A DNA stretch of 64,000 nt from a virus: IMG/VR virus record IMGVR_UViG_3300031951_000076, positions 24,671 through 88,670 of that record. One strand, 5' to 3'. The first letter of the stretch is position 1; each line of letters starts with the position of its first letter. Both the position numbers and the translations under genes were made by a program. Shown piece by piece: positions 29,383 through 47,959 of this stretch. The notes below the pieces were generated by a model, which made no database searches, was not told the origin of the DNA, and worked only from the letters and a program-made list of their open reading frames with translations.

Positions 29383-29420
29383 AAAAAAATATAGCCCCAA
29401 CGTAGACACGCCAGGGCTGT
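29383..29420 (-). terminator. Rho-independent terminator after the glycosyltransferase cluster
   Basis: Minus strand AGCCCTGGCGT-GTCT-ACGTTGGGGCT hairpin followed by a T-run. Confidence 0.7.
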
Positions 29421-29453: not shown

Positions 29454-30773
29454 TTATTCAAAAGATATATCAAAAAAGTTACCTCTTTGTTTTATATCAT
29501 CTGTGTTAATTCCTTTGTAATTTAAAAAAGGAATAACATCTATATAAAACTGTTCTTGATCTTCTTTCCAACCTGGGTGAAAAGAAATATGCATTGGTAC
29601 ATTTAAATCCCAAAGAACTGATTTTTCTTTCAGCAGTTCTTGTTCATGACCTTCAACATCTATTTTTATAACAGAGATATTACTTTCAGATAGGTTATAT
29701 TTTTCTAAAATTTCTTTAATTGAAATACAATCAACTGATATTAAATTTTCTGTAGCTGAATCTCTTGTAATACTTTCCCCTAAAACAGCAGAACCTAATT
29801 GTAATTTAGTTTTTGTAGAAACAGCTTTGTCTTCTAAAATAATATTTGATATATTATTTAATTTAATATTTTCTACAAACTCTGCATGAGCAACTGGATC
29901 AGGTTCAAAACATATACAGTTCTTTGAATATTTTGAAGCTACTAATGATATAGGACCTATCCACGATCCTATATCTATAAATGTTTTATTTTTATCAAGT
30001 TTTGGAACAATAAAATCAAAGGTTGATTGTTCCCACCAAGAATAATGATCTAACCAAAATTTTGTTGTAACTGGTGTATTTTGTACATTAAATTCCAAAC
30101 CACCTTTATTTACCTTATGACTCATATTAATAGTTGATTTTAATTTGGTTCCCCAACATGATATACTTGATGCTGCAGTGTTTAAATAATATTTCCATTC
30201 ATCTGTAATATTTTCATCTGTTAAATACCACGGTGTGTGTTTTATACAATATGGTTTATCTAATCTTAAGGCATCATATGCAAAACCAGAAAATGGTCTA
30301 TATAAAGCAAATGTTGTATCAATATGAGCATCCCATCCAATATCTTTTCTGTTTATCCAATACTTACTTTCCCATTCTCTTGCTTGCCTTCCTATTTCTG
30401 TTTCAGGTAAATCACTTATATCTAATGAAAATCCAACTTTAAAAACATCAGTGTTTTCTAAAACATTAATCATTTTATCAAGCCAATCATTTGGAACGTC
30501 ATCATACAAGCAATCTGAATCAGCTATTATAAAATAGTTATCGTTAAAGTAAGGTCTTAATTGATCACCCCATACAGAATGGGGACCATTATTTTGACTA
30601 GAATAAACAACAGTTACACCTGAGTTATTATAATATTCTAATAATGGAGGATATGTAGATTGCTGATCAAAAATTACAATCTCAATTCTTGGTTCTTTTA
30701 AAAGAAAGTTAACAGCGTTTTTTAAAGAACTAATGAGATTTCTATTGACAATAAATGCTTTAATCTTTTTCAA
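29454..30773 (-). CDS. GT-A (GT2-like) glycosyltransferase fused to FkbM-family SAM-dependent methyltransferase
   Basis: N-half: IVNRN, FDQQSTYPPLLEYY, ADSD (DxD), AHIDTTFALY. C-half: FIDIGSWIG, CFEPDP, IKIDVEGHE (FkbM signatures). Confidence 0.85.
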   Translation of the reverse strand: MKKIKAFIVNRNLISSLKNAVNFLLKEPRIEIVIFDQQSTYPPLLEYYNNSGVTVVYSSQNNGPHSVWGDQLRPYFNDNYFIIADSDCLYDDVPNDWLDKMINVLENTDVFKVGFSLDISDLPETEIGRQAREWESKYWINRKDIGWDAHIDTTFALYRPFSGFAYDALRLDKPYCIKHTPWYLTDENITDEWKYYLNTAASSISCWGTKLKSTINMSHKVNKGGLEFNVQNTPVTTKFWLDHYSWWEQSTFDFIVPKLDKNKTFIDIGSWIGPISLVASKYSKNCICFEPDPVAHAEFVENIKLNNISNIILEDKAVSTKTKLQLGSAVLGESITRDSATENLISVDCISIKEILEKYNLSESNISVIKIDVEGHEQELLKEKSVLWDLNVPMHISFHPGWKEDQEQFYIDVIPFLNYKGINTDDIKQRGNFFDISFE

Positions 30774-31509
30774 GAAAATCTTTTAAAAGTTGTTTATAAT
30801 CTTGTTCCCAATGTGGGTTCAAATATACATCACCTGTAGGAACATAACCTAACTTACGCATGTATTCAACATGTTCACTATGTCTTTGTATCACATTTGG
30901 TCTGTCACTAGTATCTGTACCTGCACCACTCATATGATAACTTCTACCTCCCCACATATAAAACCAACTCACTTCATTGTCTGGTGGAGCAGCAAATACA
31001 ACATTTTGTGAATTATATCGAATATTCATTACAAATGTCATATCATATCCTGCATTCTCATGTGGATGTTTTCCAAGATTTTCCCAAATTCTTTTACTAT
31101 AAACAATGCCTGAATTACCTAATCCTGTAATATCAGTAATTGCTTTATTGTTAAAGAAAACTCCACGATGCCAGTGTAAAAGATCTGTATCTTCTTTAAA
31201 ATACTTTGCAATATTTGTTAGATGATTTGGAAGTGCAACATCGTCATCGTCCCAAACTGCAATTATATTAGATGAACATTGACTTACAGCAAAGTTTTCT
31301 TTTTCACCAATTGTTTGAAATGTGTAATCTAAATTATAAATTTTTATTTCAGGATGGTCAAAGATTAATTTTTGTAAAGGGTAATCGTTTACAATAATCA
31401 TTTCTTTTTTACCAGGATAGTCTTGATTAATAAAAGAATAAATACTTTCTTCTAATAAATCCACTCTACCATACGTTATACATTTTGCAGATATAAAAGG
31501 ATAATTCAT
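30760..31509 (-). CDS. Glycosyltransferase family 2
   Basis: CITYGR...SFINQDY...IIVND and VWDDDD (DxD) GT2 pattern. Confidence 0.85.
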   Translation of the reverse strand: MNYPFISAKCITYGRVDLLEESIYSFINQDYPGKKEMIIVNDYPLQKLIFDHPEIKIYNLDYTFQTIGEKENFAVSQCSSNIIAVWDDDDVALPNHLTNIAKYFKEDTDLLHWHRGVFFNNKAITDITGLGNSGIVYSKRIWENLGKHPHENAGYDMTFVMNIRYNSQNVVFAAPPDNEVSWFYMWGGRSYHMSGAGTDTSDRPNVIQRHSEHVEYMRKLGYVPTGDVYLNPHWEQDYKQLLKDFLEKD

Positions 31510-32432
31510 ATAAGCGCTGATGTTTTAGAAGTGTTAATAATTTCTTCAGCATACTTATATGAACAAAAATCTTTATTAAGATTTTGAATTTCTATATCAT
31601 ATGGTAATACTAATTGATACTTGCCTTTAAAAAATAAATCAGTTCTGTCAGAAGTTACACCTGCATTATGAAATATAGGATGTTTATCCCATTCACTAAC
31701 TGGAGATGTAGCCCAAGAAAAAGAAAGTTTATTAGTTACTAATACTTGCTTATCCCAAAACCAAAGATTCCAAAGAACTGCCCACATATCAGCACACCAA
31801 ATTTGTAGTTCATGATATGAAGGATCTAATGCTTTATCTTTATCAATTTCATGTGTAATTAATCTAAAAAGATTTTCAGCATCATAATATACTTTTTTCC
31901 AAAACTCTGCAGGAATTCCTTTTAAAATATATTGTGCTCCACCACTATTTTTTTCTTGCTCAATAATGTATTGTTTATTAACATTAACTATATCAGCCAT
32001 AAAATCAAGATACTTTTCACCTTTAGATCTAACATAGTTTGCACCAATATAACTTACAGTATCGCTTACATAACAATTATCATCTTCAAGAAGTCCTTTA
32101 AAATCTAATGGTTTTGCAAAAATAATATCGCAGTCATGATAGAAAATAGTTTCATGTTCTAATTCAGGATGCTGCAACCAATGCTTGTACAAAACATGGG
32201 GACGTATACTGGATATATAACAAGGTTTTTGCCTGTTATCTGGATAAAAATAAAATCTCGTATCAGTGTATTTTGCTGCAAGTTTTTGCCATTTTTCAGA
32301 AACATGTCCATGGTGCCCACATACAATTTGAATATCTTTTGGATCTACACCATTTCTAACAAAGTTATTAATCATAACTTCTACTTGCCATGTATAATAA
32401 TCTATGGCAGGTTGTACGCATAAAAATTTCAT
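31506..32432 (-). CDS. Putative peptide O-glycosyltransferase (HPAT/SGT1, GT95/GT96-like GT-A fold)
   Basis: YYTWQVEVM, YISSIRPHVLYKHW, YHDCDIIF (DxD), GGAQY, WCADMWAV, IFHNAG parallel in order the conserved blocks of plant HPAT/SGT1 as I recall them. Confidence 0.6.
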   Translation of the reverse strand: MKFLCVQPAIDYYTWQVEVMINNFVRNGVDPKDIQIVCGHHGHVSEKWQKLAAKYTDTRFYFYPDNRQKPCYISSIRPHVLYKHWLQHPELEHETIFYHDCDIIFAKPLDFKGLLEDDNCYVSDTVSYIGANYVRSKGEKYLDFMADIVNVNKQYIIEQEKNSGGAQYILKGIPAEFWKKVYYDAENLFRLITHEIDKDKALDPSYHELQIWCADMWAVLWNLWFWDKQVLVTNKLSFSWATSPVSEWDKHPIFHNAGVTSDRTDLFFKGKYQLVLPYDIEIQNLNKDFCSYKYAEEIINTSKTSALI

Positions 32433-32449: not shown

Positions 32450-32457
32450 CAAATATA
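32450..32457 (-). promoter_or_regulatory. Candidate Bacteroidota sigma-A -7 element (TATATTTG) upstream of the GT cluster
   Basis: Matches TAnnTTTG 18 nt upstream of the 32432 start; short motif in AT-rich DNA. Confidence 0.4.
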
Positions 32458-32466
32458 TTAAATAAA

Positions 32467-34935
32467 TTAACAATATCCTATTGCTTGTACAAATGATGTT
32501 CCTCCAAAAATACCACCTTGAAAACATACAGTATTACCAGGCGCAAGTGAAAAGTTATTTGACCAGTTAACACAATAATCTGACCAACCACTTACACTTA
32601 CAAAAAAAGTAGATGTATTTAAATATTCAACAGATGGTGCAACTACATATGTAGGAGAAGTGCTAGTAGAACCATCTGTAAAAAATACTCTTAATCTGAT
32701 TTCAAAAAATGTTGCAACTGGAGGAGTAGCATAAAGACTAAGTATATTACATATATTTAAAAAACCAGATTGTACATTAGTTGCAGCAGGACTGCTTTGT
32801 GTCCAACTTAACCAATTTTGTTGTCTATGATCTAGAAATACAGCGCTAACACATTTACAATTATCACCTAAAAGACCCCATAGAATTGTTTGATTACAAC
32901 CACTTCCCCCAAAAGGTGCTGATGTAACAGTTGCTATTGTAGCGCCTGGATAACAAGTTCCACCTGGATTTCCTGAAATAAAAGGTGTGCAAGTATTTGT
33001 ACCTGAAACACATGCGGGTGCAATTGTTGTAGTGCTGGTAGAAGTAGTTGTTGGTGGACCTGTCACCACAAAACTATTAGATGCAGGACAAATTCCACTT
33101 ACACTCACAATTCTTAACTGAACAAGAGATCCTATTGGTATTTGAAAAGGTAACACAGTTGATGAAGATAAACAACCTGTACCTCCTACCACATTATTCC
33201 AAGGAGTCCAAGATGTACCTGTACCACTTGTATCAGCTCTAAATTGAACTTGAGAACATGTGTTACAACCTACTGTTGGAATTGTGTAATTTATTTGAAC
33301 AGTTTGACTACCCGTGCCACCACCTGATATTGAACGAGCATCAGTAATTGTTGGAGAACAGCATATTGGAGGAGCTAACGTAGTAGTTGTACTAGTTGAT
33401 GTTGTGCTAGTAGTCGAAGTGGTAGTCGAAGTGGTTGTAGTAGATGTAGAAGTTGTTGTTGTAGTTGGATTACATACCCCTCGATTTAATGCTTTAAAAC
33501 CATAAGGATCAGGAAGATTGCTATTAGGTACATTTACCCATAAATTAGATACACAACTTAAAATACAACTAGCTGGGTAAGGACCAGCTAAGGGACTATA
33601 AGCTACAATAGCTGATGGTGCAAATGGAGGTGTTAAAGATGTGTTAGTTGCATAAGCAACAACCCACGCACCTCCTGGCAGATAAGTAGAACTATTATCC
33701 CAATATATGTATAGTACTTCAGGATCTGGTGGATCAACAATAAATTTATACCACACCTTACCATTTACGAGTGTTGTCTCAGGGAATAAACTTTGTTCAA
33801 TATTACCAAAGTTTTCTGAAAATGCATAAAAACAAATATTTTCTGGACATTTTCCTAACGCACTACTGCATACTGCAGGTGTTAATGCATTATTACAATC
33901 AGGAGTCCATTGATTAGTTGAACTACTTATAGGTAAAGCGTTACCACCATTATCAAGTGTTTGAAAAATTGAACCTGCTCCTAAACCATCTATATCCCAA
34001 ACCCATTTATTAATAGAAGGTAGCCAATAAACAGCTAAACTAGTTGCATAACCATACCACACTTTACCATTATATAAAACTGGTGATGTACCGATTGGTA
34101 AATCTTCATAACCTAGACCACCTTGTTCTGCTGCAACTATAAAACACATTGTTGGATCAATAGTAGTTGTAGTTGTTGTGGAACTAGTTGTTGTGGAGCT
34201 TGTTGTAGTGCTTGTGCTACTTGTTGTTGATGTTGATGTAGTAGTACTTGTTGTTGAAGTACTAGTAGATGTAGTAGTACTAGTTGTTGAAGTAGTAGTT
34301 GTAGTGGGGCAATTTTCTAAAAGTGAAGAATCTATAAACCCTACACTTGTTCCACCAACTACTTGTGGTGTCCATAATGGAGGATTTATACCATTAGTAA
34401 CTGGATATTGTGCTGTTGATGGAAGTGTTTGAATTATTCCACCAAATGATGAATCTTCATGAACCCACTGTGTACCATCATAATACACTCTTCTTAATGG
34501 AGAATTGTCAAAAACATATTGAGGTTTACCATTTATTTGAGAAGCATTACCGCCTGATGATAATTGTATATTATAAAAACAAGCATTACCTACACATTCT
34601 ATATATAAATTAAAACATATATTAGGAAATACAGTAGTTGTGGTCGTAGTAGAAGATGTTGTAGTTGTTGAAGAAGTTGTACTACTTGTGGTGGTGCTAG
34701 TTGATGTACTGGTAGTAGTAGTTGGTAAAATAATTGGTATATTACAACTACTAGTATTTGACGTAGCTATTAAAGCTATTACACCTGGTGATACATCAAC
34801 TAGCATGCCTGCTAACAAATCTGCTGTATTTACAACAGATGGGTTAACAGTACCGCCAGCAGGTATTGTAGATAAAGTCATCGTTGGACCAAATCCAGAA
34901 CCAAGAGGACCATTTATTTGTACAAATACAAACAT
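32467..34935 (-). CDS. Mucin-like Thr/Ser-rich modular virion surface/fibre protein (822 aa)
   Basis: Shared ~70 aa N-terminal domain, four poly-T/S tracts, three NGK(x)WY-type repeats, FN3-like C-terminal domains. Confidence 0.75.
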   Translation of the reverse strand: MFVFVQINGPLGSGFGPTMTLSTIPAGGTVNPSVVNTADLLAGMLVDVSPGVIALIATSNTSSCNIPIILPTTTTSTSTSTTTSSTTSSTTTTSSTTTTTTVFPNICFNLYIECVGNACFYNIQLSSGGNASQINGKPQYVFDNSPLRRVYYDGTQWVHEDSSFGGIIQTLPSTAQYPVTNGINPPLWTPQVVGGTSVGFIDSSLLENCPTTTTTSTTSTTTSTSTSTTSTTTSTSTTSSTSTTTSSTTTSSTTTTTTIDPTMCFIVAAEQGGLGYEDLPIGTSPVLYNGKVWYGYATSLAVYWLPSINKWVWDIDGLGAGSIFQTLDNGGNALPISSSTNQWTPDCNNALTPAVCSSALGKCPENICFYAFSENFGNIEQSLFPETTLVNGKVWYKFIVDPPDPEVLYIYWDNSSTYLPGGAWVVAYATNTSLTPPFAPSAIVAYSPLAGPYPASCILSCVSNLWVNVPNSNLPDPYGFKALNRGVCNPTTTTTSTSTTTTSTTTSTTSTTSTSTTTTLAPPICCSPTITDARSISGGGTGSQTVQINYTIPTVGCNTCSQVQFRADTSGTGTSWTPWNNVVGGTGCLSSSTVLPFQIPIGSLVQLRIVSVSGICPASNSFVVTGPPTTTSTSTTTIAPACVSGTNTCTPFISGNPGGTCYPGATIATVTSAPFGGSGCNQTILWGLLGDNCKCVSAVFLDHRQQNWLSWTQSSPAATNVQSGFLNICNILSLYATPPVATFFEIRLRVFFTDGSTSTSPTYVVAPSVEYLNTSTFFVSVSGWSDYCVNWSNNFSLAPGNTVCFQGGIFGGTSFVQAIGYC

Positions 34936-34947
34936 ACTTTATATAAA

Positions 34948-35580
34948 TTAAGAAATCTTCTTAACAAAAATTCTAGTTGGTGTATTATTAGCATCTGAAG
35001 GGAATGGTGACTGTGCACTTGGGTTCATACAAACACTATAATAACCAGCAGCTGTTACTTCAAGTATAAGTGTAGCATTAATTATCTGATCAGCAGCTGC
35101 AGCTTCAACTGATTTATAATCATTCAAAAGAGTAATTGAACTCATTGCTCCACCTGATGTAGTAGAAGAAGATACTCTTACAAGGATATCAACATTACTA
35201 GTAAAATCAAAAAAGTGAATTTGAGTAGTTATCTCATAAATACCAGGTTGCTTAAAATGAATACGAGCTCCTTGGTTAGCATTAGTTCCAGCTACAGATC
35301 CAGAATTAACAAGCTCAAACACATCTGTATTTGTGTTAAATAGTACACTGTTCCATGGAATGTAGTTATCTATTCCATTTGTCATATTACCATATTGAGC
35401 ACTTGTAGGATAAGCTCCTCCTGATCCAGGGTTAACCCAGCTAAATCCAGCTGAAGGAGTTGTGAAGTTCTCTTTTTTCACCCTGTAGGTGGTTGCTCCT
35501 GTACTGTCATTCATTACAATTTCAGCACCCTGCGTGTTCCCAGTAAATAAAGGAAGAGCAGAAATTTTTACGTTAGGCAT
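34948..35580 (-). CDS. Short tail fibre/spike with KISxLP N-terminus and C1q/BclA-like C-terminal head
   Basis: MPNVKISALP N-terminus; RIHFKQPGIYEITTQIHF beta-sandwich pattern. Confidence 0.6.
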   Translation of the reverse strand: MPNVKISALPLFTGNTQGAEIVMNDSTGATTYRVKKENFTTPSAGFSWVNPGSGGAYPTSAQYGNMTNGIDNYIPWNSVLFNTNTDVFELVNSGSVAGTNANQGARIHFKQPGIYEITTQIHFFDFTSNVDILVRVSSSTTSGGAMSSITLLNDYKSVEAAAADQIINATLILEVTAAGYYSVCMNPSAQSPFPSDANNTPTRIFVKKIS

Positions 35581-35619
35581 AGTTTTTAAAATTTAAAAGT
35601 TAAAATATTTAGGGTTATA

Positions 35620-35627
35620 CAAATATA
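35620..35627 (-). promoter_or_regulatory. Candidate Bacteroidota -7 promoter element (TATATTTG)
   Basis: TAnnTTTG match in the intergenic gap upstream of 35580. Confidence 0.35.
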
Positions 35628-35634: not shown

Positions 35635-38600
35635 CTATTGTTCTGTTATTAACAAATCATTGTTTTCAGCTTGAAGCTCATCATTTAATTCAGTTGATAT
35701 AAAGTTACTAGGATCTGCAGTGGTAGTAGTTGTAGTACTAGTAGAAGTTGTACTTGTTGTAGTTGGAGTCGTACAAGTACCATCAATATATTCAATTTCA
35801 ACAGCATCTGTACTTGAAATTGTTAAAGATGATGTTGTATAATTTCCAGTACCTATAACATCTATACACTCAACTATAACACTGTTAATTTTAATATTAA
35901 GTTTTGATGTAGGTGCAGCTGTTCCTATATTAATAGTCAAAGCACCAACATAACCACCATGAACACCTTCTGCAGTTTGACCATTTGTAACAGGTAAACT
36001 ACCTACTGTTATAATATACCAAGAAGGTGTAATATTATCTAAACTAGATCCTGCAGATGTATTATTAGTTACAAACAAACTTCCAGAAGGTAATGTTGTT
36101 GTGGTTGTAGTACTAGTTGTTGTGGTCGTACTAGTTGAGGTAGTCGTTGTTGTAGTAGGTTCCTCTGTAGTAGTTGTTGTTGTACTAGTTGTAGACGTTG
36201 TTGATGTCGTAGTAGTAGTAGGCTCTTCTGTAGTCGTAGTTGTAGTACTTGTTGTGGTCGGTTCTTCAGTTGTCGTAGTAGTTGTTGAAGTAGTTGTAGT
36301 TGTGCTTGTGGTAGTTGTAGGACATATTGATTGCTCTATAACTAAATCTTCATCATTCTCAGCAGTTATGGAATCATCTCCTTCACTTGCTAACAAACAT
36401 AAAGTAGCAGGATCTATTGTAGTAGTTGTAGTTGTACTGGTTGTAGAAGTAGTGGTAGTGGTTGGCTCCTCTGTAGTAGTAGTGGTCGTACTAGTTGAAG
36501 TAGTCGTAGTTGTAGGTTCCTCTGTGGTTGTAGTAGTTGTAGAAGTTGTACTAGTAGTAGGTTCTTCCGTAGTCGTAGTTGTAGTACTGCTACTAGTAGT
36601 AGTTGTGGTAGGTTCTTCTGTTGTAGTTGTTGTAGTAGAAGATGTTGTTGTACTGCTAGTAGTAGTAGTTGTTGGTGCACAAGACTGACAATCGTTAGGG
36701 AAACCTGATAGCAAACATCCAACTTCACATGGGGTAGTTGTTATATCCCCAGTTATATTAATTGGTGTTCCAGCAAGAACACAAGCTGTTATAGTGATGT
36801 TTGTTCCTATTATACCAATAGTATCTGGAGTTCCGTTACATTGTATATAATCTATATTTCCTCCTACTGTAGGGCCTGAAGTAAAGCTATAGCAGAAGCA
36901 ACAAGACTCAGCTACAATATTATCATCATTCTCAGCTGTTATAGGATCATCACTTTCAGTAGATATGAAACACAATGTAGCTGGATCTAACGTGGTAGTA
37001 GTCGTAGTGCTTGACGTTGTGGTAGTACTAGTTGAAGTTGTAGTAGTGGTGGGTTCTTCAGTTGTTGTAGTTGTAGTTGTCGGCTCCTCAGTAGTAGTAG
37101 TAGTGGTTGTAGGTTCCTCAGTAGTAGTAGTAGTGGTAGTACTTGTACTTGTTGTAGTAGTCGAAGTAGTAGTTGTACAAGTTGTTACAAAACTTTTTGC
37201 TCTTACATTTCCTAAAGAATCTGTAAATGCTATCCAATAAGTTCCTACAGCAACACCTCCTTGTGAATATACTACAGATGTACCAACTGTCCAACTAGTA
37301 TTAGATAATGCTGCAGCTTCACTTGTAAACCAAAAATTACCAAAAGCATAACCTGTGCCTGAACCTCCTGTTGGGTTATTTGCTGTAACCTCAATTGATT
37401 GAGTTGCAGCATTTACGCATACTACAGATACTATATCAAAGTCTAATGGACAAGGTGATTGTTCTATAGCTAAATTATCATCATTTTCCCCTGTTATAGG
37501 ATCATTCCCTTCTGTAGCTATCAAACAAAATGTAGCAGGATCTAATGTTGTACTAGTTGTTGTCGTTGTTGTGCTAGTGGTACTAGTTGTAGTAGTAGAC
37601 GTTGTAGGTTCTTCAGTTGTTGTGGTCGTTGTAGTACTTGATGTTGTTGTTGTCGTAGGTTCTTCTGTGGTTGTCGTAGTTGTACTAGTACTTGTTGTAG
37701 TAGACGTTGTAGTGGTGCTTGTGCTACTTGTAGTTGTAGTTGTACTAGTAGTAGTTGTCCCAGGACTATCACATAATAAACCAAATGCAAAGTTAGTTCT
37801 GTATTCACTATATGTAGCCTGAATCTGAATTTGTGTATGTGTTCCGGGAAACTGTACAATACCATAACCTTCATTACCAGATATAGTGTAACTATTAGAT
37901 CCAAATACTACACCGCTGTCTCCCACTGTAAGGTCTGTTGGTGTAACAGCACAAGGTCCAGCAGCATTAAATCCACATCCAGGAAGTTCAATAAATGGTA
38001 CATTAGGTTTAAACAACTGCTGTGTTACAGGGCTACCCAAAGACCATATACCAAGAATAGGATCAGCAATTGGTGATGAGAAATTAAAGGTGATTGTCAC
38101 TATTCCAGCAATATTACCTTTAATATAGTATGAATTACCACTTGGTGCAACATTACCATAACTTGTACAAGTAATACCATTAGTACATTGTACAGGTTCA
38201 ACACCTGTGGGATTAAGAGGATCAAATCCATCACCAGGACCTGCAGGACCATTGGTAGACATTGTGATACCAATTATACCTTGTTTAGCAGTATTTATAG
38301 ATCCTTCAGTATAATTATCACCAACATTCTGCCATACAATTTGACAAAGTGTAGTAGTAGTTGTTGTTACAGGACATTCTTCAGTTCTAAGTTGATCATC
38401 ATTTTCTGCTGTAATTGGTTCATCAGCTTCAGTAGCAAGTAAACAAATATTGTTTGGATCTTCAGTAGTAGTAGTTGTAGTAGAAGATGTAGTAGAAGAT
38501 GTTGTAGAAGATGTTGTAGGGATTGTACCTGTACCACCACCATTGCTACAAGGATCTTCTGTAGTTGTAGTTGTAGTGGATGTTGTTGTAGTAGTAGACG

Positions 38601-39435
38601 TAGTTGTTGTAGGACAAGCACTTGCATCACCACTTCCTGGAACAGTACAAGGTGGTTCATATATACATAAATCAAATGTACCAATTTGACCACTCGATGG
38701 TCCACCATACCCCCAAAATCTTACATAAATTGTATCGCCAGATGTTAATCCTGTTAAATGTATAAACGGCATTGATGAACCTGATACATCGTCAACACAA
38801 TAAGTTTGTGTAAGAGATTGACAATCTGAACCTTCGTAAATTGCTAAAGCACCATCTGTAATTTGATTTGCTCTTGTACTTACAAGCACATTACCGCTGG
38901 CAGGAACTATAAATCTTAACCATAAATCATGACCTAAATAATTTCCACAAGTTGGAATTGGTAAAGATGCACCTATACTAGGAGTTGTATATGTTGTATA
39001 AACACAATTACACTGAACTGGAACTAATGTTGAAACACAAGCATTTGTTCCTGGTTGAGCTGTTGTAGTAGTTGTAGTTGAAGTAGTACTTGTTGTTGAT
39101 GATGTAGTACTAGTACTTGTTGATGTAGATGTAGTTGTCGTTGAAGTAGATGTGCTAGTAGTTGATGTGGTAGTGGTTGTTGTGGATGTAGTTGTAGTGG
39201 TACATCTTAGATTTAGTTTATCTAATATAATATCTACAACTTCTTGAACATTCATTCCTTTTTTTACACCAGCGCAATCGTAGTCACTTCCATTATAAAC
39301 AATACACTCTGACTCAACAATAATATCACATTTTTGAGCATCAGGACATATAGTTGTTGGGCATGGATATGTTTTACCGTCTTGTGGACAGCAACAAGGT
39401 AAATTATTATATGAGCAACTACAACTGCAAGACAT
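35635..39435 (-). CDS. Mucin-like scaffold protein (1266 aa) with five acidic repeats and host-like beta-sandwich domains
   Basis: Cys-rich N-terminus (CIVYNGSDYDC), about nine poly-Thr tracts with EEP punctuation, five copies of (L/I)x(T/S)ExxDx(I/L)xxENxxx(L/I)xxE. Confidence 0.8.
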   Translation of the reverse strand: MSCSCSCSYNNLPCCCPQDGKTYPCPTTICPDAQKCDIIVESECIVYNGSDYDCAGVKKGMNVQEVVDIILDKLNLRCTTTTTSTTTTTTSTTSTSTSTTTTSTSTSTSTTSSTTSTTSTTTTTTAQPGTNACVSTLVPVQCNCVYTTYTTPSIGASLPIPTCGNYLGHDLWLRFIVPASGNVLVSTRANQITDGALAIYEGSDCQSLTQTYCVDDVSGSSMPFIHLTGLTSGDTIYVRFWGYGGPSSGQIGTFDLCIYEPPCTVPGSGDASACPTTTTSTTTTTSTTTTTTEDPCSNGGGTGTIPTTSSTTSSTTSSTTTTTTEDPNNICLLATEADEPITAENDDQLRTEECPVTTTTTTLCQIVWQNVGDNYTEGSINTAKQGIIGITMSTNGPAGPGDGFDPLNPTGVEPVQCTNGITCTSYGNVAPSGNSYYIKGNIAGIVTITFNFSSPIADPILGIWSLGSPVTQQLFKPNVPFIELPGCGFNAAGPCAVTPTDLTVGDSGVVFGSNSYTISGNEGYGIVQFPGTHTQIQIQATYSEYRTNFAFGLLCDSPGTTTTSTTTTTSSTSTTTTSTTTSTSTTTTTTEEPTTTTTSSTTTTTTTEEPTTSTTTTSTTSTTTTTTSTTLDPATFCLIATEGNDPITGENDDNLAIEQSPCPLDFDIVSVVCVNAATQSIEVTANNPTGGSGTGYAFGNFWFTSEAAALSNTSWTVGTSVVYSQGGVAVGTYWIAFTDSLGNVRAKSFVTTCTTTTSTTTTSTSTTTTTTTEEPTTTTTTTEEPTTTTTTTEEPTTTTTSTSTTTTSSTTTTTTLDPATLCFISTESDDPITAENDDNIVAESCCFCYSFTSGPTVGGNIDYIQCNGTPDTIGIIGTNITITACVLAGTPINITGDITTTPCEVGCLLSGFPNDCQSCAPTTTTTSSTTTSSTTTTTTEEPTTTTTSSSTTTTTTEEPTTSTTSTTTTTTEEPTTTTTSTSTTTTTTEEPTTTTTSTTSTTTTTTIDPATLCLLASEGDDSITAENDEDLVIEQSICPTTTTSTTTTTSTTTTTTEEPTTTSTTTTTTEEPTTTTTSTTSTTSTTTTTTEEPTTTTTTSTSTTTTTSTTTTTTLPSGSLFVTNNTSAGSSLDNITPSWYIITVGSLPVTNGQTAEGVHGGYVGALTINIGTAAPTSKLNIKINSVIVECIDVIGTGNYTTSSLTISSTDAVEIEYIDGTCTTPTTTSTTSTSTTTTTTADPSNFISTELNDELQAENNDLLITEQ

Positions 39436-39442
39436 TATTAAA

Positions 39443-39760
39443 TTATTTAAAAGTTACTGTAGCTGTAAAACTACAATTTAGTGGTGGTAATGTTGTTTTA
39501 CAATGCGGCAAGTTTTTAATTACATTTTCTAATATTATACAAAGTGAATCACCATCTTTTAAACCATAACATTCTATATTAGGTCCGTGATATTGAATAC
39601 ACTCACAATCATAAAATTCTTCACACGGTTCACAATTAGGATTAATAGTTGTAGTGGTAGTCGTAGTTGTTGTACACTTAGGTACACAACTAGGACATAC
39701 AGTTTCATGACAACCGCATGAAGCACTACATCCACAACTACAATTACAATGACAACTCAT
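39443..39760 (-). CDS. Small Cys-rich protein with poly-Thr tract
   Basis: Metallothionein-like Cys-rich N-terminus, Thr run, CIQYHGPNIEC motif. Confidence 0.7.
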   Translation of the reverse strand: MSCHCNCSCGCSASCGCHETVCPSCVPKCTTTTTTTTTINPNCEPCEEFYDCECIQYHGPNIECYGLKDGDSLCIILENVIKNLPHCKTTLPPLNCSFTATVTFK

Positions 39761-39773
39761 AATTTTTTATTTT

Positions 39774-42700
39774 TTAAGGTACAGGATCTTGACAGGTTTC
39801 ACCTAAAGGATCGCACATTTTAGAAAAAACTGATTTTATACCAGTACCAGTAGCAGGATTAAGGCCAAATTGAACACATCTCCTATACTTTGTATTAGCA
39901 TCAGTAAAAGTTAAATTTTCAATTGTAGGAAGAAACTCACAATTTGAATATGAAACAGTTCCTGTAAAAGGAAATGCTAATGCACCGCTTGCTTCAAATG
40001 TAATACACATACACGATAAATCAACTGAATTACAATCTTGACCAGTAGCAATATTACCATATGACATTTTGTTACAAGCGTTAGTTCCTGTTACGCATTC
40101 CCATGAAGATCCAATTGGATAATCAAGATTTTGACCAGTATAGCTAAGTAAAAAGGCATATAATGTTCCAACAGGATCGTTCAAATCACTAACAATTTCC
40201 CATCTGGCAAGTCCTATATTCCAATAAATATATAGAGAAATTTGTGAAATACTTGGTGATGGGAATGTAGGTGTTTGTACAACATAATAAGCTTTTCCAT
40301 TTATATTTCCTTGTGGTGTTGCTTCACTATCATATACAGAATACTCTGTAGCACCATCTATTCCACCAATAAAGTTTACACATATACCACTGCATCCATA
40401 AACTGTTACAGGAGGATTGCCACCAGTTGATTCTGCAAAACATGTACCTAAGTTAAGAACATACTTTGGTGATATGCCAGAAACATTAGTTGCAGTAACA
40501 TCTTGTAATGAAGAGGTACAAACATTAACATAACTTACTGGATTAGTTGATGCTTCTGCAAAAGTAATAACTTGAGTTACACCTTCACAATCTGGATAAG
40601 TTACTTGAGCAGCAAAACCACCTTGGATTTGATAATCTATATTTAAACAATTACAACAACTGCCTATATTACTTGAAACAACAAAACCACCACCACCAGT
40701 TATATTATTTACATTTACCCAATCTAATGATGTTCCATTTGGTGCTGGAACAACACCATTATTAAAAGGTACATTTAAGTATGCTGCTAACGTACCATTT
40801 ATAGCATTAATTCTAATTTCCCAACGAGTTCCAGACCATACTAAATAACCAGTATTTGCCGTATTATTAATACTAGTAAATCGAAATACTGGTTGATTAT
40901 TAACAATATCTATTGTTGTAGAAGATTGAGATGAATAACCATTTGCACCTCCAACAGTTTCAAGACTTGTAACTAAACAAGCTGATTGACACAGTAATTC
41001 ATTATAACTAGTAACTTTTAAAAATAATGTTGAACTACCAAAAGGTGCCACAGGCTGCTCAACCCATGCTGTTTCTGGTGGAGTTAATCCAACACCAACT
41101 GTTGAATTTGTAGCTGTAATAAAACCAATAGCTACAGGAGGTGTTACGACAGGTACTGCAGTTTGTGCTGCTACCCATTGAGTACCATTATAATAAACAG
41201 TAAAATGATATGTTGTTACACCTAAAGTATCTGTACCAGAATACCAATATTTACCATTATATAAACCATTATTAGTCAAATCAAAATTAAAACCAATTGC
41301 TTCAGCATTCCATGATGAACAAAGCGGTACTCTTGGACAAGATGGATTATTAAAATCAAGAGGTGCTGCTAAAGCAAGCGTCCCACTACCATATGGAAGT
41401 TCACCAGTTACAGTCCAATTATTTGTTGTTGGAGGATATATGCCTACACCAGCATCAGTATTTGTGGAAATTTGATTACTTGTTGGAATTGGAAATACAG
41501 GTGGATTAATTGTATGTGCTGCTATCCACGTTGTACCATCATAATATACAGTAAGATATGAGTTATCTGGTGCAAACATTGTATTTGTTTTTGGTGTTGT
41601 GTACCAAGCTTTACCATTATAAATTCCACCAAATTGCATTTGAACTTGACCATTGCCAACAGGTGTTGCTTCATTACCCCACTCAGCACACAATGTAGGT
41701 TGTATTGTAGTGGTCGTTGTAGTTGATGTGGTTGACGTAGTAGAACTAGTTGTGCTTGTAGTGCTACTAGTTGTTGTTGTGGTTGGAGGACATGATATAC
41801 GATTGTTACAAAGTTCAGTTGTACTAGCTGAAACACCATTTGGTAATGGTGTTCTAAACATAGTTGCACACACACGTGTACCATTAGAAACAGATACAAC
41901 TTTATCAAGATATGTAATACAATCTACAACAGTAACATTTACAGGTGAACCTAAAGAAGATATAAATGTATAACATCTACAAGGTAAATTTAAGGTTGTA
42001 GTTGTTGTAGTGCTTGTAGATGAAGTAGTACTGGTACTTGTGGAAGTGGTTGTACTACTTGTTGTAGTACTTGTAGTAGATGTACTGGTAGTGCTAGTAG
42101 TAGTTGTTGTTGGTACTGGACAAGCTGTATTATTAACACATGGTATAATAGATGAAATAAGTTGTGACGTTGCACCATTATTATCTGAAGTACCGACAAA
42201 TCCACTTCTTGCACATATAGCAGCTACATTTCTAGAAATAGTTAATGTCTGAGATATACCGCTACAATCATCCCAAAATATATCTGTACTAGAACCAATA
42301 GGTCCATTTGAAATAACTGAATAACAATAACATGGAATTGTAGTGGTTGTTGTTGTACTAGATGTAGAAGTAGTTGAAGATGATGTAGATGTCGTTGAAC
42401 TACTCGTAGTAGTCGATGTAGATGTTGTTGTAGAACTACTAGTTGTTGTGGTACTTGTAGAAGTGGTAGTCGTAGAACTTGTAGTTGTAAACTGTGGTTT
42501 TGGTGTAGTTGTGGTAGTAGTTGAACTAGTACTTGTAGAAGATGTGGTTGTACTACTAGTAGTTGATGTACTACTTGTTGATGTAGTTGTTGAAGTGGTT
42601 GTACTAGTTGTAGGACAAGGTGTAACATCACAAAGAGGTCCAGGTGTAGAAATAACAATAGGACCGCATGCATCAATTGCTGTTACTGAAATTGCACAAA

Positions 42701-43979
42701 CTATGTGTTGTTGATTTGGTCCAATATAAATCCCCCATACAAGATTACCATTTCTATCTATATATGAATAATACCCACCATTAGGGCCACCATCAATTGT
42801 AAAACAATAAGGAGGAGGTAAAGTGGTTGTTGTCGTTGTACTTGTGGTGGTAGTTGTTGATGTTGTCGTAGTTGTTGTAGTTGTACCAAGAGATGTGTTA
42901 GTACATTCAGGTAATGAAGATGCACCATCAATTTTAAAAGATACACTACCAGCAGGAGGAACAATTACACCATAAGGAGGAAAATGTTGAAATTCATAAA
43001 TGTTACCATCTTTATTACCTAAGTAAATTTTACCCTGTGCTTGAAATACACCAAAAGGAAAATCTACAATACCTGTTACATTAACCGTTTCTTCAAGCGT
43101 TCCTGTTGCGTAATCATACTGATATACAAACTTTTGATTTGTTACAATATCAAAAGTGGTAACTATAAACTTACCGTTAGATGTTAATAAAAAGTCACCT
43201 GATATTTGATCATTAATATCTAATTGAAAACCTGGAATAAAAGTATTCGTAGTTAAATCATATTCCCCAACAGTAGAAAAACCACCCACTGATAAAATAG
43301 TATTTACTACAAGAAGTCTTGTATTATTTATAGCCCAAAGACCATCAGATGAATTAAATCCTACAGGCCATGTGTAAGTAGCTACAGGATTTATAGAAGA
43401 TGTAAAAGGATTAATTGTAATATTCCATTCTACAAATTGTCGCGTTACTAAATTTATTAACCAAAGTTTTGTACTCGTATGAGCTACGTCAGGTGAGTTA
43501 GGACCAAACTGTATATTTAAAAGAGTACTTGTATTAGTTATTACATTATATTGATAAACTTGTGAACCAGAGTTTAATATAACTAAACAAGGATCAGCAG
43601 TTGTAGTGGTGGTCGTAGAAGTAGTTGTTGTTGTAGATGTAGAAGTAGAAGTACTTGTTGTAGTTGTAGGTAATGGACAAATTGTAGTAGTAGTAGTAGT
43701 TGTAGAAGTAGACGTAGTACTAGTTGTTGTAGTACTTGTAGTGGTGGTCGATGTTGCACAACTTACGTTTACAAAAAACGGTTGATTCCATGTATCTTGA
43801 GATACAATTTTAACAACAGTGGTACCATTAGGAACTAAAACATTATATCCAGCTGGTTGAAATGCTGATAAAGGAATATTTGTAATAAAAGGAATTGCGT
43901 AACCATCTGCATTTGTATATAAATCAAATGGTCCACTACCTGGTGATACGTTAAGTGATATGTTTATTAAAAATGACAT
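39774..43979 (-). CDS. Mucin-like Thr/Ser-rich modular surface/fibre protein (1401 aa)
   Basis: Shared N-terminal domain, beta-propeller-like region, about six poly-T/S tracts, small Cys modules, four NGK/NNQ-type repeats. Confidence 0.8.
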   Translation of the reverse strand: MSFLINISLNVSPGSGPFDLYTNADGYAIPFITNIPLSAFQPAGYNVLVPNGTTVVKIVSQDTWNQPFFVNVSCATSTTTTSTTTTSTTSTSTTTTTTTICPLPTTTTSTSTSTSTTTTTSTTTTTTADPCLVILNSGSQVYQYNVITNTSTLLNIQFGPNSPDVAHTSTKLWLINLVTRQFVEWNITINPFTSSINPVATYTWPVGFNSSDGLWAINNTRLLVVNTILSVGGFSTVGEYDLTTNTFIPGFQLDINDQISGDFLLTSNGKFIVTTFDIVTNQKFVYQYDYATGTLEETVNVTGIVDFPFGVFQAQGKIYLGNKDGNIYEFQHFPPYGVIVPPAGSVSFKIDGASSLPECTNTSLGTTTTTTTTSTTTTTSTTTTTTLPPPYCFTIDGGPNGGYYSYIDRNGNLVWGIYIGPNQQHIVCAISVTAIDACGPIVISTPGPLCDVTPCPTTSTTTSTTTSTSSTSTTSSTTTSSTSTSSTTTTTTPKPQFTTTSSTTTTSTSTTTTSSSTTTSTSTTTSSSTTSTSSSTTSTSSTTTTTTIPCYCYSVISNGPIGSSTDIFWDDCSGISQTLTISRNVAAICARSGFVGTSDNNGATSQLISSIIPCVNNTACPVPTTTTTSTTSTSTTSTTTSSTTTSTSTSTTSSTSTTTTTTLNLPCRCYTFISSLGSPVNVTVVDCITYLDKVVSVSNGTRVCATMFRTPLPNGVSASTTELCNNRISCPPTTTTTSSTTSTTSSTTSTTSTTTTTTIQPTLCAEWGNEATPVGNGQVQMQFGGIYNGKAWYTTPKTNTMFAPDNSYLTVYYDGTTWIAAHTINPPVFPIPTSNQISTNTDAGVGIYPPTTNNWTVTGELPYGSGTLALAAPLDFNNPSCPRVPLCSSWNAEAIGFNFDLTNNGLYNGKYWYSGTDTLGVTTYHFTVYYNGTQWVAAQTAVPVVTPPVAIGFITATNSTVGVGLTPPETAWVEQPVAPFGSSTLFLKVTSYNELLCQSACLVTSLETVGGANGYSSQSSTTIDIVNNQPVFRFTSINNTANTGYLVWSGTRWEIRINAINGTLAAYLNVPFNNGVVPAPNGTSLDWVNVNNITGGGGFVVSSNIGSCCNCLNIDYQIQGGFAAQVTYPDCEGVTQVITFAEASTNPVSYVNVCTSSLQDVTATNVSGISPKYVLNLGTCFAESTGGNPPVTVYGCSGICVNFIGGIDGATEYSVYDSEATPQGNINGKAYYVVQTPTFPSPSISQISLYIYWNIGLARWEIVSDLNDPVGTLYAFLLSYTGQNLDYPIGSSWECVTGTNACNKMSYGNIATGQDCNSVDLSCMCITFEASGALAFPFTGTVSYSNCEFLPTIENLTFTDANTKYRRCVQFGLNPATGTGIKSVFSKMCDPLGETCQDPVP

Positions 43980-43982
43980 TTT

Positions 43983-44903
43983 TTAACATATATTTATTCG
44001 AGCTACACTATTTCCTGTAACACATGAATTAAATAGTACAGTTCCTGTTGGTGAAGTTATTCTAAGCCAGTTTATATTAGAGTGTGGTATATTATTACCA
44101 CATACAGCATTATACGTTGTCATCGCAGCTGGAATAGAAATATTAATAGTTGTAGATCCAGGTGTAATTGTTGCTGCAACAGCTAATGCCTGCGCTTGCG
44201 ACAGAACAGTTTTACTATATCTTGAATATCGATTCCACGTTGCTGATGGATTTAAAGCAGTTGGTATATTATTATAATCTCTACATATATTTCTTCCAGA
44301 AAGTGATAAAGCACCACCTGTACCAAAATCATTATTTAAAAGAATATCTCCAAGATAAACACCATTGCCATAAATTTCAAACATTGCTTGATTACACACA
44401 TGATCACCAATATCACCCATACAAGGATGTGTATAACCAGCTGGTAATAATTGCAACTCATTAAAATCATGTATATATATACCTTCTATTATCAGACCAT
44501 TTAAACAATTTACTACAGGTCTTACTGTTGTAGTTGTAGTTGTTGATGTTGATGTAGAGGTAGATGTTGATGTAGAGGTAGATGTCGTACTAGTAGTTGA
44601 GGAAGTACTAGTTGTTGTTGGTAATCTAGTAGTAGTAGTAGTTGTTGTACTCGTAGTTGTCGTACTAGTAGTAGTTGTTGTTGTTGGAGGTATATTAACA
44701 ATTATACTATTTGTACATTTACCATTTGATCTAATTTTTACACTTGTTGTAAAATCAGGTACATTCACAGTTACTCCAGATGTAAGATTTGCTTTTGAAA
44801 TATTAATACCATAAGCAACGATATATCCATCCACATTTGAATAAATCATAAATGGACCTGTATCACCACCTGCTGTATTTAATTTTACAAAAATAGCTTG
44901 CAT
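43983..44903 (-). CDS. Thr/Ser-rich surface protein (306 aa)
   Basis: Shared N-terminal domain (AGGDTGPF), long T/S linker, C-terminal Cys-containing domain. Confidence 0.75.
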   Translation of the reverse strand: MQAIFVKLNTAGGDTGPFMIYSNVDGYIVAYGINISKANLTSGVTVNVPDFTTSVKIRSNGKCTNSIIVNIPPTTTTTTSTTTTSTTTTTTTRLPTTTSTSSTTSTTSTSTSTSTSTSTSTTTTTTVRPVVNCLNGLIIEGIYIHDFNELQLLPAGYTHPCMGDIGDHVCNQAMFEIYGNGVYLGDILLNNDFGTGGALSLSGRNICRDYNNIPTALNPSATWNRYSRYSKTVLSQAQALAVAATITPGSTTINISIPAAMTTYNAVCGNNIPHSNINWLRITSPTGTVLFNSCVTGNSVARINIC

Positions 44904-44904
44904 C

Positions 44905-46062
44905 TTAACTTATATTTTTACAAACATTGAAACCTGTTATTTTATAAACAACACTAGGGCTTGCTGGTATATTCTGAGGATTTTGAAAAATGTTAACACC
45001 ATTAACAATTAATGTTTCTATACGCATTCTAGGTGCAGCACCAGGTGCATTAATTAATACAAAATCACTAATGGCATTAGCAGGAAGATTAATATTAAAA
45101 TTATATTGATCTAACAAAGTTGTACAATTTGTATCAGAATATCTTTTTGCAACACCTGTAATAGTAAGTGCTACTGGATTAATTCCTAATGACTTAAACA
45201 CCTCAATTCCTATAAAACCATCAAAATTTGTTGGTGAAATAATAAATGTAGCCACTGAAGGATCAAATACTGTTGTTGTAGTTGTTGTACTTGATGTAGT
45301 TGTTGGTGGTGGTATACATGATTCATTTGACTGCTGTTGTGAAGAACCAGCTGCACATGCTTTACCAAGAGGTGTCACAGTAACAAAAGATGTATTAACA
45401 GATATTGTATTTGTTCTAGCACAATAGTATTTTGTTGAATTTCCACTTATGTTTTCTGTGTAACTAAAATTATTACAACCATCATAAGATATTCCTTGAG
45501 TATTTGCTGAATTATTTTTAACACTATAACATTGACAACGTAACGTAGTTGTTGTAGTAGTAGTTGATGTTGATGTTGTAGATGTTGTTGTAGTACTTGT
45601 AGTACTTGTAGACGTAGTCGTTGTTGTTGGAGCAGGAGTACAACAAATATTTGTATCATTATATGAACCAGGACCTACAGATTGTGTAATAGGTTTAGTA
45701 GCATCAATACATCTTGTAACAGTTATATTACGAATTGTTAAAGAACTAGGTGTTATTCTTCCACATTGATAAAAAGTAAATGTAGTTGGTGTTACACCGC
45801 CTGTAAATGTAAAGTTTCTACAAGGACATTTAGTTGTTGGTACAGTTAATAAAACTTCATCACATTTTTTTCCAGAATTAGATTGAACACTTACTTTAGC
45901 TGTTGCATTTGGAACAATCATGTAATAACCAGATTGCAATTGTAGTTTAGTAACAGTTGATGGCCATATAGTAGGATTGTTTAAATTATCATAAAGTATA
46001 ATACTATAAGGACCTGTATCAGGTCCTGAATTGTTTAATGTTAAAGCTATAGTTTTTGACAT
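44905..46062 (-). CDS. Thr/Ser-rich surface protein (385 aa)
   Basis: Shared N-terminal domain (SGPDTGPY), two small Cys modules, two T/S tracts. Confidence 0.75.
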   Translation of the reverse strand: MSKTIALTLNNSGPDTGPYSIILYDNLNNPTIWPSTVTKLQLQSGYYMIVPNATAKVSVQSNSGKKCDEVLLTVPTTKCPCRNFTFTGGVTPTTFTFYQCGRITPSSLTIRNITVTRCIDATKPITQSVGPGSYNDTNICCTPAPTTTTTSTSTTSTTTTSTTSTSTTTTTTTLRCQCYSVKNNSANTQGISYDGCNNFSYTENISGNSTKYYCARTNTISVNTSFVTVTPLGKACAAGSSQQQSNESCIPPPTTTSSTTTTTTVFDPSVATFIISPTNFDGFIGIEVFKSLGINPVALTITGVAKRYSDTNCTTLLDQYNFNINLPANAISDFVLINAPGAAPRMRIETLIVNGVNIFQNPQNIPASPSVVYKITGFNVCKNIS

Positions 46063-46069
46063 TAATAAT

Positions 46070-46351
46070 TTAATTAATCGACACTAAATCAATTGAAATT
46101 TGTAATAAACAACAGTCATCTTTAGGAAATGCTTTTGGTAGTATTTTATCAAAAAACAAATCACAAAGAGATTCACCTTTTTTTATATCGTAACAATCTT
46201 CATCTTTACCTGAATATTTTACACAACAAAGATCTATTACATCTTCACACTGTTCTTTTGGATTACAATCAGGAAGACATTGTACACCTGGTGGTGTACA
46301 TTGTAAACAAGGTTCACAATTTGGATCAGATGTATTACAATTACAAGCCAT
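46070..46351 (-). CDS. Small Cys-rich protein
   Basis: CVKYSGKDEDCYDIKKG motif shared with neighbours. Confidence 0.7.
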   Translation of the reverse strand: MACNCNTSDPNCEPCLQCTPPGVQCLPDCNPKEQCEDVIDLCCVKYSGKDEDCYDIKKGESLCDLFFDKILPKAFPKDDCCLLQISIDLVSIN

Positions 46352-46384
46352 AGTTAATTAATTATTCAGATACGGCACTATCTC

Positions 46385-47959
46385 CTAAACACATATTGAT
46401 TGTAAATTTAATGTACCTCCTGTTGCAGGAACAACAACATCATTAATATAATAATACGCTAAAGGAACATTACAAGAACAACCTAGTGATTGATCAGGTG
46501 TTGTTGTGTTATATGAAAATTCATACGGAACTCCTTCACAATCAACAAATGATACAAATATTTTACCATTGTAACCAGGAACTGTATTACCTGATGCGTT
46601 ACCTAAATCTGTTGAAGAAGGTGTAACAGTCCATTCATAACAAGGTCCACAAGTAGTAGTAGTGGTAGTAGTACTGGTAGTAGTAGTACTAGTAGTTGTT
46701 GAAGTGGTCGTTGTGCTTGTTGTTGTTGACGTGCTGGTTGTTGTTGTTGTTACAGGTTGTATAACTTGTACAATTTGTTTACTACATGTTTTACCATCTT
46801 TTATAATGCAACCATTCACTGTAACTGTATATGGTAAATTTGGATTCAAAGAAGATGTACTTACATCATATGTTACACCAATAGGATTTGTAGATTCAAC
46901 AACTAAATCTAATGTTGTAGTGTAAGTGTGACCATTTCCATCAGTAATAGAAACAGTAGATAATGTAGGACAATTTGCAAAACCAGATGGAATTACAGTA
47001 CCACTATTAAAAATTAAAGTAACTAAATTTCCTGCTGTATTTCTTGTAGCTTGATATACTAAAAAGAAAGCAGAACAATCCACAGAGCAACATGTTTTTA
47101 AATCATATATTGCTGATCTTATATCACAAACAGTAAGCCATAAATTTTGAAAAGACTGCGCTAAATTAGCAGGACTAATTGTCCACCCAGGAATAGATGC
47201 CATTGTCCCAGTTTGACTTAAAGCATTTTGTGAACTTAATAAATTACATTGTGCAGTTGTAGCAAGACCTATATCTGATGGAGTACCAAGTGAACTAGTA
47301 AAAACACATAGTTGCTGATCAAGTAAACCTAAAAGAATATCCATTTGAATAGGTACACCTTGTGTAGCTATACTATATGAACAAAAAGGTGTAACAAGTG
47401 GTGGAACATAACCTGGGTCATTCTCAAGACTAGTAACCCTTGTTTGTAAATCTAAAATTTGTAACTTTTGTAAATTAATTTGTTCATTAAGAGAACAAAC
47501 TTTATTTGCAACAAGAACTGCATATTCACTTAACTTAAGACTTGTAACAATTAAACCAGTAGACGGATCAACATACCATAAACATTCAGGAAGAGGAAGT
47601 GTAGGTTCAGAATACTCTCTATCAATTACTTCTGCTAAACTACTTGATGTATTAAAAGAAACTTTACCCACACAACAAATGGCATTTGTTAAAAGCTGTA
47701 TAACATTTTCTAACTTTTTATCTGTAGGTATTTTTAATGTACTGCACGCATCAACAAGACAATCAAAATCAACATCTGATAAATCAAGTGCTTCTTTTAC
47801 TTTACATAGCTCATCTGCAAGTTTATATACTACATCAGAAACAGTATCACCTTTACAAAGATTGATACATTTAAGATCAGGGCCCTGCCATATCACACAA
47901 TTTGATGATATAGGTGAGCAATTTTCTTTATCAGAATTTGAATGATACGGTGTCATCAA
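46385..47959 (-). CDS. Cys-rich coiled-coil fibre-like protein with C-terminal Thr tract
   Basis: CVIWQGPDLKC motif, heptad segment (LNEQINLQKLQILDLQTRVTSLE), poly-Thr near the C-terminus. Confidence 0.75.
   Translation of the reverse strand: MMTPYHSNSDKENCSPISSNCVIWQGPDLKCINLCKGDTVSDVVYKLADELCKVKEALDLSDVDFDCLVDACSTLKIPTDKKLENVIQLLTNAICCVGKVSFNTSSSLAEVIDREYSEPTLPLPECLWYVDPSTGLIVTSLKLSEYAVLVANKVCSLNEQINLQKLQILDLQTRVTSLENDPGYVPPLVTPFCSYSIATQGVPIQMDILLGLLDQQLCVFTSSLGTPSDIGLATTAQCNLLSSQNALSQTGTMASIPGWTISPANLAQSFQNLWLTVCDIRSAIYDLKTCCSVDCSAFFLVYQATRNTAGNLVTLIFNSGTVIPSGFANCPTLSTVSITDGNGHTYTTTLDLVVESTNPIGVTYDVSTSSLNPNLPYTVTVNGCIIKDGKTCSKQIVQVIQPVTTTTTSTSTTTSTTTTSTTTSTTTTSTTTTTTTCGPCYEWTVTPSSTDLGNASGNTVPGYNGKIFVSFVDCEGVPYEFSYNTTTPDQSLGCSCNVPLAYYYINDVVVPATGGTLNLQSICV

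Follow-up and report, generated by a model that had tools for sequence, protein, structure and literature searches.

A GT8-like phage glycosyltransferase family associated with poly-threonine tracts in virion proteins, a candidate initiator of protein O-glycosylation

Introduction

Glycosylation of virions by the phage's own enzymes has been described in phages of Actinobacteria: the mycobacteriophages Che8, Corndog and Myrna are stated, in the later papers through which the work is cited here, to modify their own virion proteins with their own glycosyltransferases, the glycans being placed at the C-termini of capsid and tail-tube subunits (Freeman et al. 2023, Cell Host Microbe 31:1216, cited through PMC12619734 and PMC13313380). 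The present analysis concerns a glycosyltransferase gene of the family phrog_4417 (the target gene) in a stretch of 64,000 nucleotides (hereafter the window), which covers positions 24,671 to 88,670 of the IMG/VR virus record IMGVR_UViG_3300031951_000076, a record of 88.7 kb that is ~74% complete. Its product is probably a cytoplasmic, GT8-like enzyme of the GT-A fold that puts the first sugar on the poly-threonine (poly-Thr) tracts of virion proteins encoded upstream. As in the mycobacteriophage system the gene lies with virion genes, and the C-terminal glycan sites given in those summaries correspond to where the poly-Thr tails of two homologous loci lie, in Enterococcus phage phiFL1A and Lactobacillus iLp84. 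In the window, however, the tracts form long linkers within giant fibre-like proteins instead of short tails at the C-terminus. The target family further differs from the mycobacteriophage system in its hosts (Bacteroidota and Bacillota), in being unnamed and without a Pfam or NCBIfam model, and in the conspicuous, near-pure poly-Thr tag. The kind of process, self-glycosylation of virions by phages, is known, whereas the enzyme family, the poly-Thr tag, the host phyla and a link to peptides that are made by the ribosome and then modified post-translationally (RiPPs) differ from what is known; a literature search returned nothing on the target family, on poly-Thr-tagged phage proteins or on Bacteroidota clusters with the enzyme.

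Two groups of described enzymes offer comparisons. The GT8 enzymes LgtC, glycogenin, Skp1 alpha-galactosyltransferase Gat1 and GlyE, together with the GT24 catalytic domain of UGGT, share with the target the place of the DxD motif, behind the fourth strand, and a histidine and a lysine that are conserved late in the sequence (H255 and K269), and glycogenin likewise glycosylates a protein hydroxyl. They differ from it in sequence, at 7-13% identity and with neither a Glyco_transf_8 match (E<=1) nor a sequence match in the PDB, and the target family has invariant motifs of its own, YxxWQ, GGAQY and QxWCADMW. The animal mucin-type GT27 enzymes are retaining GT-A initiators that densely O-glycosylate tandem tracts rich in Thr and serine (Ser), after which variable elongators act. 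Here the likeness is one of analogy, with no sequence or specific structural relation (GT27 is outside the top 50 fold matches); the target has no lectin domain and its reaction would be cytoplasmic.

Results

The target protein matched phrog_4417, a family of 'unknown function', over its full length (E 1.4e-75, 255 bits, residues 1-301 on positions 1-291 of the 293-position profile). The family comprises more than 2650 clusters at 90% identity, all of them annotated 'hypothetical', and 852 clusters at 50% identity (E<=1e-3), and its members were found in 77 GenBank phage records (Lactobacillus, Enterococcus, Staphylococcus, Lactococcus, Clostridium and Chryseobacterium phages) as well as in Bacteroidota and Bacillota genomes. 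A Pfam scan of the protein gave no family at E<=1, Glyco_transf_8 included, an NCBIfam scan gave no match, and the Pfam GT8 scan of 133 family members was likewise negative; against PDB sequences, phmmer gave no match and the family profile gave chance matches to TALE repeats only. The predicted model is a single Rossmann-like alpha/beta/alpha domain with a central mixed sheet, as in the GT-A superfamily, and its three-dimensional architecture is of the GT8 type, the best solved fold matches being GT8 and GT24 structures. The DxD motif sits after strand 95-99, that is, after the fourth strand, which is its usual position in GT-A enzymes. Because the fold neighbours are retaining enzymes, retaining chemistry is the best guess from the model and is probably that of the target. 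The model is globular from residue 2, starting with a beta-strand, and has no N-terminal hydrophobic helix, so that, without a membrane anchor, the protein would be expected to act in the cytoplasm.

A preliminary description of the window, made from its letters, had listed a series of motifs in the translation, and all of them were read there: YYTWQ at residues 12-16, Y72-ISSI-R77-P78-HV-L81-YKH-W85, D100-C-D102, W212-C-A-D-M-W-A218 and H255. The series is the conserved core of the family, and the description needed only the trivial correction that the spacer it gave as L(xx)W is truly L(xxx)W. Conservation was read from an alignment of 54 standalone homologues (35-86% identity) and one of 79 homologues fused to further domains. 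In the standalone alignment Y72, D102, Y128, Y133, G165, Q167, M216, W217, F238, H255, K269 and P277 are invariant, W15, D100 and W212 are at least 90% conserved and D65 is near-invariant too; in the fused alignment the same columns are invariant or nearly so, D100 and D102 both being invariant. Since the motifs are conserved across the 54 standalone homologues, they are not chance strings.

The target gene starts 34 nucleotides (nt) past the stop codon of an upstream gene for an 822-amino-acid protein with poly-Thr tracts, and seven consecutive upstream genes (32467-47959) all bear poly-Thr/Ser tracts, numbering 4, 21, 1, 7, 2, 2 and 1. The position of such tracts was surveyed in 75 distinct IMG/VR loci with a homologue, of which 69 had enough upstream flank and 70 were assessed downstream. 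A poly-Thr tract was present in the directly upstream open reading frame (ORF) of 49 of the 69 viral loci and in the directly downstream ORF of none of the 70, and tract density, 2.8 per kb in the first upstream kb, was ~0.2 at 5-8 kb upstream, compared with 0 in the first kb downstream and about 0 over that side. Looser Thr-rich runs were present in 3 of the 20 loci lacking an upstream tract. Cultured phages of further phyla give the same picture. The major tail protein of phiFL1A ends in NGTTTTTSTTTTTTSSTTTTTTTQASSK, a 21-residue Thr/Ser tail, and is directly followed by the homologue; the iLp84 capsid protein ends in VPTTTTTTTSK and is followed by a small poly-Thr protein and then by the homologue; and the protein upstream of the homologue in Chryseobacterium phage MA9V-3 has a 22-residue tract. 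In phiFL1A and iLp84 the homologue sits among capsid, tail and connector genes, and the target gene also lies in a structural module. The complete genome of phiFL1A has tracts in only two ORFs, the capsid-position gp45 and the tail gp50.

A distant structural homologue is orf49 of Lactobacillus phage LP65, a Herelleviridae myovirus (20% identity, TM-score 0.74). It follows orf51 and orf50 (L168:4064-6107), which both have Thr-rich C-terminal tails of TETQTQTQ-type repeats and of which orf51 is annotated as structural by 2-D/mass spectrometry; to judge from these tails, the tag may be looser than pure poly-Thr. As a bridge to remoter relatives orf49 was rejected, as it has 4 homologues only, none of them with a Pfam domain, and no Pfam match itself.

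Presence and absence of the enzyme were compared in 80 loci of the target phage's lineage, anchored on the exonuclease gene just downstream of the cassette that the target gene heads. Long tracts were found in 14 of the 15 loci with the enzyme gene (3-18 tracts each) and in none of the 65 without it. For the set with 8 kb upstream, the association gave p = 2e-5 (Fisher) and p = 9e-10 (Mann-Whitney), values that overstate the evidence, and to that extent weigh against our interpretation, as related loci are non-independent samples. Loci with and without the enzyme are interleaved at similar exonuclease identity (57-65%), and the co-variation is therefore not that of one clade against another.

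The order of genes within the cassette bears on the step at which the enzyme would act. In syntenic relatives the poly-Thr gene is invariably followed first by that of the enzyme, and what comes after differs: GT2 and a fusion of GT2 with an FkbM-type methyltransferase in the window; GT6, a gene of unknown function and FkbM in a relative at 84% identity; GT2, FkbM and GT7C in another; and a GT7C/GT2 fusion in a further one. The 249-amino-acid GT2 gene that stands second in the window, and overlaps the target gene by 4 nt, is not conserved among close relatives. The swapped genes, at L004:10915-13633, L034:10909-12947 and L042:10917-12599 as against 29454-31509 of the window, encode GT6, GT2, GT7C, FkbM and proteins without a Pfam match. 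Such swapping between close relatives suggests rapid diversification of a glycan, like that of O-antigen loci. In fused homologues, too, the C-terminal domain is variable (GT2, GT6, GT7C, GT25, GT29, GT32-like or GT61 domains, or methyltransferases). Glycan pathways usually start with an enzyme that is constant and specific for its acceptor, followed by extenders that can be exchanged for one another. An initiating role is favoured because the enzyme is constant in first position among variable extenders and because its homologue is the sole glycosyltransferase annotated in phiFL1A. Epimerase and NTP-transferase genes (NTP, nucleoside triphosphate) were sought in the incomplete 88.7-kb record and not found, from which the sugar donor would probably come from the host pool.

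The family also occurs outside phages. In Chitinophaga, Pedobacter, Sphingobacterium and their relatives, a fused form (450-600 amino acids, with a GT7C-like C-terminal domain) lies in chromosomal RiPP-like clusters, its partners being a radical S-adenosylmethionine (SAM)/SPASM RiPP maturase, a LanC-like protein and a GT1 enzyme; in P0143 (658 amino acids) the homologue is fused directly to a radical SAM and SPASM domain in one polypeptide. Of 46 such loci, 23 yielded precursor peptides with a double-glycine (GG) leader; one of these peptides matches the TIGR04149 leader model below its cut-off, and their cores are Cys-rich, many also being Thr-rich just after the leader (e.g. WTGSTTTGPTQSGTT) or at the C-terminus (KTTTVPTTPAPTA). 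The family thus adjoins a Thr-rich peptide again in a non-phage setting, which is an independent context. These clusters may encode O-glycosylated peptides of which no description was found. An example is the Chitinophaga niastensis cluster at L094:4179-12107, with similar ones in L097, L098, L100, L105, L106, L108, L113, L146, L147 and L149.

The features of the locus are collected in Table 1. Phage origin of the window is given by its terminase, major head protein and virion structural proteins, which match PHROG families, and nearly every gene in the ORF listing lies on the minus strand. The promoter-like element upstream of the target gene resembles the Bacteroidota -7 element, whose consensus is TAnnTTTG. 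Together with the strong hairpin after the third gene it suggests that the three-gene cassette may also have its own transcription, and it suggests a member of the Bacteroidota as host. The fusion protein encoded by the third gene is presumed, from its two domains, to elongate and methylate the glycan. Among the upstream proteins, the one of 1266 amino acids (35635-39435, minus strand) has 21 poly-Thr tracts with 360 Ser/Thr residues in them; between the tracts lie Cys-rich modules and acidic 'EEP' and 'AENDD' segments that recur. For a phage protein this is a mucin-like architecture of an extreme kind.

Table 1. Coordinates of features at the target locus (positions of the window)
Feature	Position	Strand	Remarks
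Target glycosyltransferase gene	31506..32432	-	308-amino-acid ORF; predicted soluble GT-A enzyme, phrog_4417; first gene of the glycosyltransferase cassette
DxD codons D100-C101-D102	32127..32135	-	Presumed metal- and nucleotide-sugar-binding site; D102 invariant, D100 at least 90% in 54 homologues
Promoter-like element TATATTTG	32450..32457	-	18 nt upstream of the target ATG; read directly; resembles Bacteroidota -7 element
822-amino-acid protein, 4 long poly-Thr/Ser tracts	32467..34935	-	116 Ser/Thr residues in tracts; directly upstream; presumed main acceptor
Six more co-directional poly-Thr genes	35635..47959	-	21, 1, 7, 2, 2 and 1 tracts; presumed further acceptors
GT2 glycosyltransferase, 249 amino acids	30760..31509	-	Second cassette gene; Pfam PF00535, E 3.4e-11; putative elongating enzyme
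GT2 and FkbM-type methyltransferase fusion	29454..30773	-	Third cassette gene; Pfam PF00535 and PF05050; TIGR01444, E 5.7e-22
Terminator-like hairpin	29393..29418	-	11 pairs, then a T run; closes the cassette; consensus match

Discussion

The preliminary description had proposed that the protein is a viral relative of the plant hydroxyproline O-arabinosyltransferases (HPAT, GT95) and peptidyl-serine galactosyltransferases (SGT1, GT96). A specific common ancestor of these plant families and the target family within GT-A, closer than either is to GT8, is in our view unlikely, and none of the searches made supports it. The chemistry is presumed to be the same, namely transfer of the first sugar to a side-chain hydroxyl in a low-complexity, extended peptide, and both groups belong to GT-A and would transfer to peptide hydroxyls, an acceptor known in the case of the plant enzymes and presumed for the phage family. 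Weak language-model similarity points the same way: for 19 of the 30 named clusters that are nearest in a language-model atlas, the Pfam family PF23452 (HPAT) is listed on at least 10% of members, which serves as a lead only. When PF23452 was scanned against 143 members (133 representatives, being the 54 standalone and 79 fused homologues, plus 10 Bacillota prophage members), it matched one, a standalone member at E 0.09; it matched neither the target protein at E<=1, nor anything in the whole virus record at E<=10, nor five bacterial genomes with members, and the 79 fused and 10 prophage members, 89 in all, gave no match. The fold comparison says less, for the best matches, GT8 and GT24 structures, are formally the outcome that the preliminary description had named as speaking against this kinship, yet the PDB and viral libraries searched contain no HPAT or SGT1 structure, so that HPAT could not appear in the list. 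Plant HPATs are Golgi type II membrane proteins, and the tracts of the two plant families are of hydroxyproline (Hyp) or Ser-Hyp, whereas an N-terminal membrane anchor of that type was not found in the target model, which begins with a strand at residue 2 and represents a putatively soluble, cytoplasmic protein; and the tracts beside it are of Thr/Ser and not Pro/Hyp-rich, hydroxyproline being the HPAT acceptor. The other lead from the atlas, DUF7164 (PF23741), was rejected, since hhalign of the standalone alignment against three Bacilli DUF7164 proteins gave a probability of 0.5% (E 0.11), the DUF7164 profile being shallow. In the Bacilli genomes L165-L167 the DUF7164 proteins are of ~280-290 amino acids, have a conserved DVD motif and adjoin GT2 genes, and in L166 they also adjoin paired 100-amino-acid proteins.

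The other half of the proposal, that the protein is the initiating Thr/Ser O-glycosyltransferase, is strongly supported by comparative genomics (synteny, co-variation, its standing as the sole annotated glycosyltransferase of small phages of Gram-positive hosts such as phiFL1A, the constant first position and the RiPP-like clusters), from which we infer the role. There is a slim chance that the enzyme instead elongates, on a sugar acceptor, a glycan whose first residue is added by a phage GT2 or by a host protein O-glycosyltransferase. GlyE and related GT8 enzymes add the second sugar on streptococcal serine-rich repeat proteins, and the target would then act as they do. An elongating role fits poorly with phiFL1A, where the homologue is the sole glycosyltransferase annotated and lies beside the only two poly-Thr-tailed proteins of the genome; it fits poorly with the cassettes, of which the target is the constant member while the other glycosyltransferases are swapped even between relatives that are 84% identical; and it would need a host initiator across Bacteroidota, Bacillota and other hosts. 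That the acceptor is not a protein at all (host envelope polymers, lipid carriers or phage DNA), with the adjacency to poly-Thr genes due to hitch-hiking in a mobile module, is very improbable, for although a GT-A fold alone does not fix the acceptor and DNA or polymers of the host surface are the substrates of many phage glycosyltransferases (PMC12619734), the gene is embedded in late structural operons, flanked by capsid or tail genes, its association with tracts is directional (49/69 upstream against 0/70 downstream) and follows its presence and absence (14/15 against 0/65), and the same pairing is met again in phage types that are not related and in RiPP-like clusters.

Several points nevertheless weigh against an initiating enzyme with poly-Thr acceptors, besides the non-independence of the loci. 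The functional evidence for the family is gene context. Most of the enzymes with the nearest solved structures act on sugar acceptors, the exception being glycogenin, whose acceptor is a protein. About one fifth of the viral loci have no poly-Thr ORF within the fetched flank. That phiFL1A has no other annotated glycosyltransferase is a matter of the depositor's annotation, as opposed to a profile scan of all its ORFs, and the first sugar might in principle be supplied there by an enzyme of the host.

With these points set against it, initiation on poly-Thr remains the interpretation that we consider likely, and the course of events that it implies would be as follows. Late in infection, the metal-dependent enzyme would use a nucleotide-sugar of the host and would transfer the first sugar onto Thr (and Ser) hydroxyls in the seven proteins of the virion module encoded directly upstream, within their long poly-Thr tracts. 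The lineage-variable GT2 and GT2-FkbM enzymes would then extend and methylate the glycan, and the outcome would be a sugar-coated, mucin-like virion surface.

A wider proposition is doubtful on present evidence, namely that poly-Thr serves cytoplasmic O-glycosylation as a portable and sequence-autonomous tag, recognised by a single dedicated enzyme family in phages of several phyla (on capsids, tails and fibres) and in peptide natural products of Bacteroidota, and that this family is the prokaryotic and viral sister group of GT95/GT96. If it held, CAZy would gain a new family, and bacterial glycoengineering a tool ready for use.

If the proposed role of the phrog_4417 enzyme is correct, the pairing of enzyme and tag would be a candidate for protein glycoengineering in the cytoplasm, and one recognisable enzyme with its tag would annotate thousands of 'hypothetical proteins'. 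It would also account for the puzzling poly-Thr linkers in phage fibres. Self-glycosylation of virions would then not be peculiar to actinobacteriophages and would occur widely among Bacteroidota and Bacillota phages, covering Enterococcus, Lactobacillus, Lactococcus and Staphylococcus phages that are relevant to phage therapy and dairy fermentation. For the phages themselves it would predict sugar-coated virion proteins, with a bearing on antibody recognition, adherence to mucus, stability and adsorption.

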